From positions 704,001 to 768,000 of the forward strand of contig CAWEPK010000008.1 of NCBI GenBank assembly GCA_963810935.1: a stretch of 64,000 nucleotides of DNA. Reading direction: 5' to 3'. Made by a program: the position numbers and the translations under genes. This stretch comes from an uncultured delta proteobacterium. GTDB lineage: Bacteria; Desulfobacterota; Syntrophorhabdia; Syntrophorhabdales; WCHB1-27. Positions 51,899 through 53,329 of the stretch are shown one piece after another. How positions within the stretch are numbered: position 1 is the stretch's first letter; each line of letters starts with the position of its first letter. The notes below the pieces were generated by a model that did no database searches, was not told the origin of the DNA, and saw only the letters and a list, made by a program, of their open reading frames with translations.

Positions 51899-52095
51899 CT
51901 AAAGCGACGCAAAACCCTTCGGTGCCATGAGGTCCCGACCGGGCCTGCAAAAGCTCTCTTACCGTCGGCTTCAAGGGACGCGTGCCCCAGTTCTTCCTGG
52001 CGGTCTGCCGATTCGAGCATCCACCGGCCGCAATAATAAAGCAAGCGTATGCGCCGCGCCGAGCGGGGAGCAACTGTGTTCGATGTCAAGAGATT

Positions 52096-53019
52096 TCATC
52101 GGACGCACCAGGAGGTATTGGTTCTGACCATGGCATTCAGTATGACGAGAAGTTTTCTCATGCAGGCGGTTATTGCAACCTTGGGGAGCTTGCCGGCATG
52201 AACGAGACGTTCGTAAAAGGTTTTGATTACCATATTGTGACGGATCGCGGTGAGGGCCGCCATGTATAGCGCCGATCTGACATCCGCCCTGCCCCCGAAG
52301 ATCGTCCGTTTCCCCCGGTATTTGCCGCTGTCCCGGTTAAACGGGGCCAGGCCTGCTAAAGCGCTGATCTTCTTTCGGTTGAGTTGTCCTAGTTCGGGCA
52401 GCCGTGCAAGGAGCATGGAAGCGTTTACGGGGCCTATCCCCTTGACGCTTCTCAGAAGGTTCTCCTTTTCTCTCCATAAGGGGCTCTTCCTGATAAAAGA
52501 GGCGATATCCTTGTCTAGTTTACCGATGCATTCTTTTAACCACTCTATGTGGGCCTCTATATCGGGTCTCATCCAGTCCGGGGTGGTTTCCAGGCGGTTT
52601 CTCTCCATGGCAACCATCTCGACAAGCTGTCTTCTCCTTGCGACGAGGGTCTGGAGCCGATTGGCGTCCTTATCCTTCAGAGCCCTCGCTTCCGGCCTTA
52701 TGACCTCCCCGAAGCGGGCTATCATCTCCGCGTCTATACTATCCGTCTTGGCCAGCCTTCCCGTTGCTTTAGCGAAGTCCCTTACCTGCCTGGGATTGAT
52801 TACGACTATGGGAAGGTTGCGCAGCGCAAGAGTCTCCACGACGGGGACCTGGTATCCTCCTGTCGCTTCCAGCACTATGAGCTTCGGACGCACATCCGAT
52901 AGAAAGCGGGCGAGATCCTTTCGCCCCTCATCATTGTTTGGGAAGCTCTTTTTGATATCCGGTGTCACGAATATTTCCAAAGTCTCCTTTGCCACGTCTA
53001 TGCCTGCGAACTTTTCCAT
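52096..53019 (-). CDS. IS110 family DEDD recombinase
   Basis: [37 protein letters not shown]. Confidence 0.95.
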
Positions 53020-53029
53020 ATATTGCCCC

Positions 53030-53200
53030 TCCTTGCGAAATGCGGGCTTCATAGCCCAAGCAACTGTCCGAGCTTGTATGGAATGGGGTGTGACGACCCT
53101 TGCTCCCCGCCGGGATCATGGTCCCAGAGGCTCATCGGTCTGTCACACCCTGATGCACGGAAAGACCATTATAACCATAAATCAGGGTATGGGAGAACAT
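53030..53200 (-). ncRNA. Predicted bridge RNA in the IS110 left end
   Basis: Guide-like segments match target (GAGCCT; GCGGGGAG) and donor (ACAGTTGCT; GCAAG) in the IS621 order; ends approximate. Confidence 0.8.
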
Positions 53201-53329
53201 GGATATAAGATACAAGGCTCCGCGAGCTTCGCCCGTGGAGGGGGCGCTGAGCCCCAATAATTGCATAGTGAAACGTCGACAACGGATATATGCTGACGCG
53301 GCGATGTAACCTTCAGAAGCCCCGCCGCA

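Follow-up and report, generated by a model that had tools for sequence, protein, structure and literature searches.

A probable IS621-type insertion sequence with a predicted bridge RNA matching a host repeat in an uncultured delta proteobacterium

Analysis of a 64-kb stretch of DNA from an uncultured delta proteobacterium (order Syntrophorhabdales; assembly GCA_963810935.1, contig CAWEPK010000008.1), hereafter the window, revealed on the minus strand what is very probably an intact IS110-group insertion sequence (IS) of the IS621 type, guided by its own two-loop bridge RNA that matches both a repeat of the host and the element's own ends. We call this insertion sequence W, and B a sister element in the same genome. 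The sequence of W supports the presence of every feature of IS621-type (IS110-group) bridge-RNA elements that can be examined at this level, and its features are collected in Table 1. A first-pass annotation of the window had proposed an IS621-like bridge-RNA recombinase programmed against the host repeat. The former part of that proposal is backed by the recombinase domains and catalytic residues, the CT core, a covarying two-loop RNA and the target, donor and handshake guides, and the latter by the position of the W target inside a repeat with 145 nhmmer matches genome-wide; all the strings and coordinates on which the proposal relied were recovered on the minus strand. The bridge-RNA mechanism has been known since 2024, and W is a clean further example of it, not a new type of system.

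The borders of W were read directly from its two junctions with the interrupted repeat. Because the CT dinucleotide is the sole sequence common to both junctions, W was delimited at 53214-52069, which gives 1146 base pairs (bp). Its non-coding ends measure 195 nucleotides (nt) on the left (53214-53020) and 27 nt on the right (52095-52069), in agreement with the long-left, short-right layout of the group.

Table 1. Features of the insertion sequence W and of its insertion site in the window
Feature	Position	Strand	Description and basis
Insertion sequence W	52069..53214	-	1146 bp with one CT core counted; left end TGTATCTT..., right end ...ACAGTTG-CT; junctions read, ends kept in B and relatives
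Left half of interrupted host repeat	53215..53261	-	ATTATTGGGGC...GCGGAGC-CT; holds left target 53223-53217 and left CT copy 53216-53215; sequence and repeat family
Left junction	53223-53210	-	GCGGAGC 53223-53217, CT 53216-53215, then TGTAT 53214-53210; read from sequence
TATCTT, -10-like promoter half	53207..53212	-	2 nt inside left end
Bridge RNA core, target-binding and donor-binding stem-loops	53025..53152	-	Predicted; covariance model R1, pair statistics, single-sequence fold
Left target guide	53128..53136	-	GAUGAGCCU; same sense as left target and core; 7/9 identical to GCGGAGCCT, GAGCCT contiguous
Right target guide	53101..53110	-	GCGGGG-AG 53110-53103, then handshake CA 53102-53101; reverse complement of CT-CCCCGC, 8/8
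Left donor guide	53059..53067	-	ACAGUUGCU; 9/9 identical to right end and core, 52077-52069
Right donor guide, discontiguous	53030..53041	-	AU 53041-53040 ... GCAAG 53036-53032, then handshake GA 53031-53030; overlaps ribosome-binding site
Ribosome-binding site	53034-53028	-	AAGGAGG; overlapped by right donor guide; upstream of ATG 53019
Recombinase gene	52096..53019	-	307 aa; PF01548, PF02371; ATG at 53019
TTGACA, -35 promoter half	52084..52089	-	In right end
Right junction	52077-52063	-	ACAGTTG 52077-52071, CT 52070-52069, then CCCCGC 52068-52063; read from sequence
Right half of interrupted host repeat	52037..52068	-	CCCCGCTCGGCGCGGCGC...CGCTTGCTTTA; right target CCCCGC 52068-52063; sequence and repeat family

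The gene of W encodes a recombinase in which both Pfam domains of the family are recognized, PF01548 (DEDD_Tnp_IS110) over residues 5-145 with an E-value of 1.3e-23 and PF02371 (Transposase_20) over residues 187-270 with an E-value of 1.7e-19. When all solved structures were searched with the W protein, two distinct sequences matched, both over residues 4-299: the ISCro4 transposase (chain 9t56, E 3.8e-42), which is the best-scoring solved relative, and the IS621 transposase (chain 8wt6, E 2.7e-40). In the HMMER alignment with 8wt6, residues D8, E51, D93, D96, S231 and G232 of W fall on D11, E60, D102, D105, S241 and G242 of IS621; the first five of these are described as the composite active site of IS621, and G242 as a loop-stabilizing residue (Hiraizumi 2024, PMC11208158). 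At least 8,000 relatives of the W protein lie below an E-value of 0.001 in the protein collection, and the closest non-self sequence among the matches listed is 89% identical. The ratio of nonsynonymous to synonymous substitution rates (dN/dS) between the W and B recombinases is 0.09, with dN of 0.11 and a dS of 1.23 that is near saturation. The same ratio computed against an 89%-identical W copy in another genome (L129, see below) was discarded as meaningless, the gene of that copy being frameshifted.

The bridge RNA is predicted to occupy the left end, with a transcript that, judging from the sequence, probably starts near 53200 and extends to the ribosome-binding site. The single-sequence fold of 53200-53020 (181 nt) has an energy of -68.3 kcal/mol (z = -2.5). 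In this fold the target guides are enclosed by a long outer stem, a hairpin lies between the donor guides, and the 5' stem-loop is weakly predicted. For the comparative analysis, 39 of 62 distinct left-end segments were aligned with MAFFT. The 23 others were dropped because they were cut or badly fitted on the 5' side (L053, L105, L109, L113, L092 and L100), had large insertions or were very divergent (L046, L081, L084, L087, L101, L106, L107, L110, L111 and L112), belonged to a second subclade (L041, L042, L044, L045, L095 and L098) or were near-duplicates (L033). RNAalifold applied to this plain alignment found both outer stems, with 16 pairs of which 14 are compensatory, a result free of any bias from the covariance model described below, as the plain alignment was not fitted to it. 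The two inner hairpins were not recovered by RNAalifold from the plain alignment of the 39 left ends because their loops vary in length, and eight hand-written pairs were therefore included in the covariance model, R1, which comprises 129 positions and 24 pairs in total.

Searching 100 sources (266,635 bases) with R1 yielded 80 matches, among them most of the left ends that had been dropped and thus sequences outside the training set, such as L095 (75 bits) and L107 (72.5 bits). The sole match in the window is the left end of W, at 109.6 bits and an E-value of 3e-26. In the R1-fitted alignment (80 matches, 66 distinct rows), 94.6% of the cells are standard pairs, compared to 71.0 +/- 0.7% in shuffles, and 23 of the 24 pairs show changes on both sides, statistics that lean to the R1 structure since the alignment was fitted to it. 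Sliding the partners by one to three columns lowers the pairing to 33-51%. Across relatives the donor-loop sequence is nearly invariant and the target loop variable, as in the published layout (Durrant 2024), where two stem-loops with internal loops are described, the first variable and the second conserved. No Rfam family reached threshold in a scan of 51500-53800, where the sole weak match over a full model length was that of sX15 on the opposite strand (see below).

Four guides can be read in this predicted RNA. The left target guide proposed in the first-pass annotation, GATGAGCCT at 53136-53128, agrees with the left flank at seven of nine positions, made up of a contiguous GAGCCT and the first G, and the proposed right target guide, GCGGGGAG at 53110-53103, is the perfect reverse complement of the core and six flank bases. 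To place these matches in the context of the family, the left ends of the relatives were located by the CTTGTAT motif, and the left donor guide of each element served to locate its right end; neither step depends on the target guides. Three R1 matches without a target loop (L037, L100 and L092) were excluded, leaving 77 rows. In the right-guide test a further 19 rows with no right flank, or with no AG at the expected loop position, were set aside, leaving 58 usable rows and 49 distinct guide-flank pairs.

Across the relatives, the target guides track their own flanks. The six bases preceding the conserved AG of the right guide match the flank at two, three, four, five and six positions in 3, 4, 12, 24 and 6 of the 49 distinct pairs, respectively. 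Permutation of 40 distinct right guides gave an observed mean of 4.58 matches of six compared to 1.50 +/- 0.18, with 0 of 10,000 shuffles as high. The match by position is 0.96, 0.94, 0.80, 0.84, 0.84 and 0.16, and the effective right guide in the clade of W is thus AG plus five bases, the sixth position matching in only 0.16. The seven non-core bases of the left guide, taken in the best of three registers (n = 47), match at 5.06 positions compared to 2.98 +/- 0.16 after permutation, again with 0 of 10,000 shuffles as high. Among 53 distinct pairs, left-guide matches of six, seven and eight of nine are the commonest (13, 13 and 14 pairs), which places the 7/9 of W in the middle of the range. 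The core-pairing CU of the left guide lies one nt from the inner stem in 36 of these 53 pairs and two nt from it in 12.

The donor guides match the ends of W itself. The left donor guide was rightly predicted as a perfect 9/9 match (ACAGTTGCT at 53067-53059). In the right donor guide, GCAAG at 53036-53032, CAAG pairs with CTTG and the G opposite T forms a single wobble, as had been claimed together with the overlap with the ribosome-binding site; the AU preceding it pairs with the AT of CT-TGTAT. In the relatives, the left donor guide located the right end in 69 of 77 rows when a single mismatch was allowed, and variant donor guides accompany the variant right ends ACGGTTG, ACAGCCG, ACAGCTG, ACAATCG and ATGGATA. 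Likewise, relatives with CTAGTAT, CTTATAT or CTTGTGT left ends carry CTAG, ATAAG or AC at the matching places of the donor guide.

A further level of agreement concerns the handshake bases. According to the description of IS621 (PMC11208158), each right guide is followed by two bases which, once the strands have been exchanged, pair with positions 6-7 of the other DNA; cognate pairing at these positions blocks the exchange. In W, the handshake CA of the target loop is complementary to donor positions 6-7 (TG), and the handshake G of the donor loop is complementary to target position 7 (C), with its second position unpaired; neither first handshake base pairs with its cognate position 7. Among 53 distinct pairs, the donor-loop handshake base and target position 7 are Watson-Crick partners in 47, and G:C, A:T, T:A and C:G all occur.

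Both halves of the junction promoter that the first-pass annotation had assembled (TTGACA-N17-TATCTT) are present in W, and the 17-nt spacer would follow, by arithmetic on the sequence, from joining the two ends through one CT. Among the relatives, TAnnnT stands at +3 to +8 in 23 of 29 distinct left-end heads, and at least five of the six bases of TTGACA occur at the spacing from the core seen in W in 26 of 43 distinct right-end tails.

The repeat interrupted by W is about 79 nt long and resembles repetitive extragenic palindromic (REP) sequences, with the consensus ATTATTGGGGCTCAGCGCCCCCTCC-stem-GGAGCCTCCCCGCTCGGCGCGGCGC...CGCTTGCTTTA. Besides the nhmmer matches mentioned above, 93 of which are near-full, 59 full copies were found in the genome by pattern. 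An intact copy folds as two GC-rich hairpins; the CT used by W lies 2-3 nt past the second hairpin and that used by B 7 nt further. Unoccupied GAGCCTCCCCGC sites number 23 in the genome, compared to about 0.5 expected by chance, and four of them are identical to the reconstructed 15-nt site of W. Among the genomes searched, 26 of 31 matched the query, most of the matches listed being short stretches on its repeat parts, and the repeat was matched in all 18 other genomes searched from the host family. Some repeat copies stand in tandem at a spacing of about 101-130 bases (C17:88390/88491/88621 and C10:27314/27418/27522). A second repeat subfamily, seen at 53334-53403 on the minus strand of the window, has the same 5' half, ends in ...GGAGCC(A/T)CCCCCTCATAAAAAGGAAGAG and has many copies in the genome. 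A related form of the repeat, ending in ...CTCAAAGACTCGC, is the one in which a variant element of another genome (L130, below) sits.

DNA searches of the 4.06-Mb assembly (21 contigs) found W once and B, which is 78% identical to W, four times, on contigs C10, C18, C7 and C20, the last copy being truncated where its contig begins. The ends of B are those of W (TGTATCTT ... ACAGTTG-CT), and its insertion point lies 7 bp further on in the host repeat that W also interrupts. The three copies in which a left flank is present all read ...GCCTCCCCC-CT there, and all four copies have the right flank CGGCGCGGCGC. The left target guide of B, ATTCCCCCT, matches CTCCCCC-CT at 7/9 and its right target guide, GCGCCG-AG, matches CT-CGGCGC at 8/8. 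Between the left ends of W and B, both target guides thus differ and the donor guides are identical. The left ends detected by R1 in the genome number exactly four, one from W and three from B, and the Pfam model detects 11 IS110-type recombinase stretches, corresponding to W, the four copies of B and six of other types. These six DEDD domains of other IS110 subtypes, unmatched by R1, lie at C5:364929-365414, C17:103800-104249, C7:16129, C17:17428, C17:104816 and C5:83629.

Outside this genome, relatives of W were found at 34 loci in species-representative genomes and 63 in metagenome contigs, most full-length matches having a protein identity of about 50-59%. Those with a named organism come from uncultured Anaerolineaceae, delta-proteobacteria, Dehalococcoidia, Sedimentisphaerales, cyanobacteria and others. 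Among 30 relatives of the host, a genome of the same genus (G002) carries the 89%-identical W copy L129 as well as a variant, L140, and a genome of the same family (G008) carries a variant, L130. The flanks of these copies provide the check on the guides that the first-pass annotation had called for. L129 (contig C19) has all four guides as in W, a left flank of GGCGAGC-CT and a bridge region that differs from that of W at 2 of 128 positions; its upstream gene context is unlike that of W, and its right flank breaks off after CCC, where the contig ends. W and L129 occupy different contexts at sites of one kind, which implies at least two uses of this guide set. In L140 (contig C21), the left guide ATCGCCCCT matches CTCGCCC-CT at 8/9 and the right guide CCCCCA-AG matches CT-TGGGGG at 6/6 beyond the core, or 8/8 with it. 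In L130 (C30, around position 1437), the right guide TCTTTG-AG matches CT-CAAAGA, also at 6/6 beyond the core and 8/8 with it, and the donor guide is changed to ACAGCTG in accordance with its own right end; agreement among its right flank, right guide and donor guides is perfect. The expectation that other copies lie at guide-matching sites is therefore borne out by L129 and by the right guides of B, L140 and L130, and fails for the left flank of L130.

We lean, by a modest degree, towards regarding the W and B lineages as the product of a natural retargeting event: the donor code and the host repeat are shared, both strands of the target loop have diverged, and the two elements use neighboring CT cores 7 bp apart, one repeat family being divided between two insertion sequences. 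If this is true, W, B, L140 and L130 form a readable series in which the left guide, the right guide and the handshake bases change together in nature. The series would also display a one-nt shift of the left guide relative to the inner stem, the spacing of W being that of the 12 relatives counted above.

By analogy with IS621, W would leave its site as a circle whose ends are joined at one CT, and the circle junction would assemble the two promoter halves and drive transcription of the bridge RNA and the recombinase. A recombinase tetramer would then hold the RNA, which would pair with the two strands of the target as well as those of the joined ends, and strand exchange at the CT would insert W into another copy of the repeat. 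The guides of the first loop (GAUGAGCCU in the sense orientation and GCGGGG-AG in the antisense orientation) would specify the target on either side of the CT, and those of the second loop the two ends of the element, ACAGUUG-CU for the right and AU...GCAAG for the left.

Fourteen sequencing runs contain part of the stretch; two DNA and two RNA runs were compared with it, all in the form of assembled contigs. One 184-nt contig of the RNA run X12 (depth 2.6, four differences) lies on 53003-53185, covering the left-end RNA with none on the coding part, and a 237-nt piece of the RNA run X5 lies inside the recombinase gene. These contigs are at best a weak hint of transcription of the left end and of the gene, as contigs give neither ends nor strand and carry-over of DNA is possible. 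The other X12 piece listed, at 53348-53397, falls outside W on the neighboring repeat copy.

Several observations weigh against an active, RNA-guided W, in addition to the dependence of the fitted pair statistics on the model noted above. W is present in a single copy despite the 23 free matching sites, and no back-joined (circle) form is listed in the four runs compared as assembled contigs. Its left target guide is mismatched at target positions 2 and 3, and the CU of this guide is two nt from the inner stem, one further than in the 36 relatives with the commonest spacing; L129 also has two. The mismatches are ordinary for the family, as is the total of 7/9, since the two outermost left-guide positions match in only 42% and 58% of the pairs. 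L129 and L140 carry frameshifts in their recombinase genes that lead to stops after 47 and 29 codons, respectively, and may reflect either decay of the copies or errors of assembly. L130 is the only clear exception to the guide rule on the left side, its flank CCTGCTG-CT matching the left guide GACTCCCCT at only 3-4 of 9 positions. This mismatch may stem from an insertion with a half match or from a rearrangement that came afterwards; insertions with a match to only half of the bridge RNA are described in a 2026 preprint on half-match recombination, and by analogy such a process could account for L130. GACTCC is found a few bases upstream of the L130 insertion. Finally, the left end of W was likened to the IS621 RNA through the published description of the latter and not through a direct sequence alignment. 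Joints that skip 1147-1291 bases were also seen; their shorter sides match over 20-40 letters, and the two sides are separated by 1 to 29 additional letters. Their reading as empty W sites was rejected, and given the short sides and the extra letters they are probably other, uninterrupted copies of the repeat.

Of the explanations other than an intact, guided element, the one that deserves most attention accepts W as a genuine bridge-RNA element but takes this copy to be immobile, a resident and possibly decaying insertion. The single W compared to four copies of B, the free GAGCCTCCCCGC sites, the frameshifts in L129 and L140 and the left guide match of just 7/9 can all be cited for it. We nevertheless consider it rather unlikely, because the W reading frame is intact with all catalytic residues, its dN/dS relative to B is low, both ends, both promoter halves and the four guides are intact, the 7/9 match is mid-range for the family, and the two W-type copies in different contexts at the same kind of site point to repeated use of this guide set. 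An alternative in which the site is chosen mainly by a protein that recognizes the repeat hairpin, the RNA-flank matches being secondary or due to shared repeat composition, appears very improbable. The target does lie 2-3 nt past a GC-rich hairpin, and in a preprint on ISPpu10 additional specificity is ascribed to a stem-loop 5' of the target; there, however, the hairpin is described as an added layer that does not replace base pairing. Moreover, the CTs at which W and B enter the same repeat are 7 bp apart, with corresponding differences in both target guides. The guides of relatives match flanks that are unrelated and differ widely in composition, and when the pairings are shuffled the match drops to chance.

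To the idea that the left end is a mere 5' untranslated leader with coincidental flank matches we attach almost no credence, and the covariation already contradicts it: the structure is conserved with compensatory changes, none of the 10,000 shuffles reaches the observed guide-flank matches and the handshake covaries in 47 of 53 pairs. An additional role as a leader is possible, as the ribosome-binding site coincides in part with the 3' arm of the second stem-loop. An intact IS621-type element guided by its own bridge RNA thus remains the reading that we favor for W.

The resemblance to IS621 of E. coli, whose bridge RNA has 177 nt (PMC11208160, PMC11208158), extends over most of the features described for that element. 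The recombinase domains, the catalytic residues and the CT core are common to both; the left end has 191 bp in IS621 and 195 nt in W, with a short right end in each; and the -35 lies in the right end and the -10 in the left end. Target and donor internal loops, left guides in the sense and right guides in the antisense orientation, a discontiguous right donor guide and the handshake positions are shared as well. Both targets lie in a palindromic extragenic repeat; that of W belongs to a different repeat family and its host is not E. coli. The W protein is distant from that of IS621, though related at the E-value given above, and a blastn search of W against 5,426 E. coli genomes returned no nucleotide match. 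The right target guide of W extends five to six bases beyond the core compared to two in IS621, longer right guides being reported as common in orthologues. With ISCro4, the comparison covers the protein. In the IS1111 group, which shares the recombinase family and the guide-RNA idea with W, the bridge RNA (seekRNA) is described in the right end. The layout of W is that of the IS110 group and not of IS1111, since its RNA precedes the gene, within the long left end, and its right end has only 27 nt.

Insertion into repeats of this kind has precedents. The title of a reference cited in Durrant 2024 (PMC11208160) already places IS621 in REP-type repeats, and ISPpu9 and ISPpu10 of Pseudomonas putida, both of the IS110 family, are described as inserting into palindromic repeats between genes. 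For ISPpu10, a 2026 preprint presents a GC-rich stem-loop 5' of the target as a second layer of specificity. By description, the W hairpin that ends 2-3 nt before the core is alike, and B, inserted 7 bp further from the hairpin, departs from this geometry. The bridge-RNA model of Durrant 2024 is built on 5,511 natural ncRNA-target pairs (ncRNA, non-coding RNA), and bridge RNAs were predicted there in 85.7% of IS110 elements. Since that model rests on thousands of natural elements, a naturally different target is expected and not new. The first-pass annotation had presented W as a natural reprogramming to a different repeat family in a distant lineage; the different repeat and the distance from IS621 hold, and the novelty was overstated, natural retargeting being the very property by which bridge RNAs were defined (Durrant 2024).

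A separate observation concerns the Rfam family RF02234 (sX15, a small RNA of Xanthomonas), which, it appears, corresponds to an IS110-type bridge RNA read on the reverse strand. On plasmid pXCV183, R1 has a match of 59.5 bits (E 2.7e-15; L141, 1098-1225, minus strand) inside the published sX15 coordinates on the opposite strand, which is the strand of asX7, a transcript complementary to sX15; no IS110 gene adjoins the sX15 locus on this plasmid. Opposite the W bridge RNA, the plus strand at 53006-53161 aligns over the full length of the sX15 model at 20.1 bits (E 2.1), below threshold, and RF02234 had no match at E-values up to 10 in a search of the whole host genome. A 2011 paper counted 10 sX15 homologues in Stenotrophomonas maltophilia K279a, and no publication linking sX15 or asX7 to IS110 was found in the literature collection searched. 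Beyond the right flank of W, an open reading frame of 135 aa (51491-51898 of the window, plus strand) begins like a lipoprotein (...LAGCSS) and contains a stretch resembling a glycine zipper, after which comes a Q-rich tail.

Taken as a whole, these results add nothing new in kind to the biology of the family, as bridge RNAs, their natural diversity and their preference for REP-type repeats were already in print, and the W/B pair is a neat natural illustration of retargeting. W itself is a fully readable natural bridge-RNA element outside E. coli, with its nearest named recombinase relatives in uncultured environmental bacteria. It combines a compact 307-aa recombinase with a right target guide of five to six bases beyond the core, a feature that raises efficiency when engineered into IS621. 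The sister elements, with different target loops on the same scaffold, are natural loop-swap controls and offer one more orthologue for tool development.

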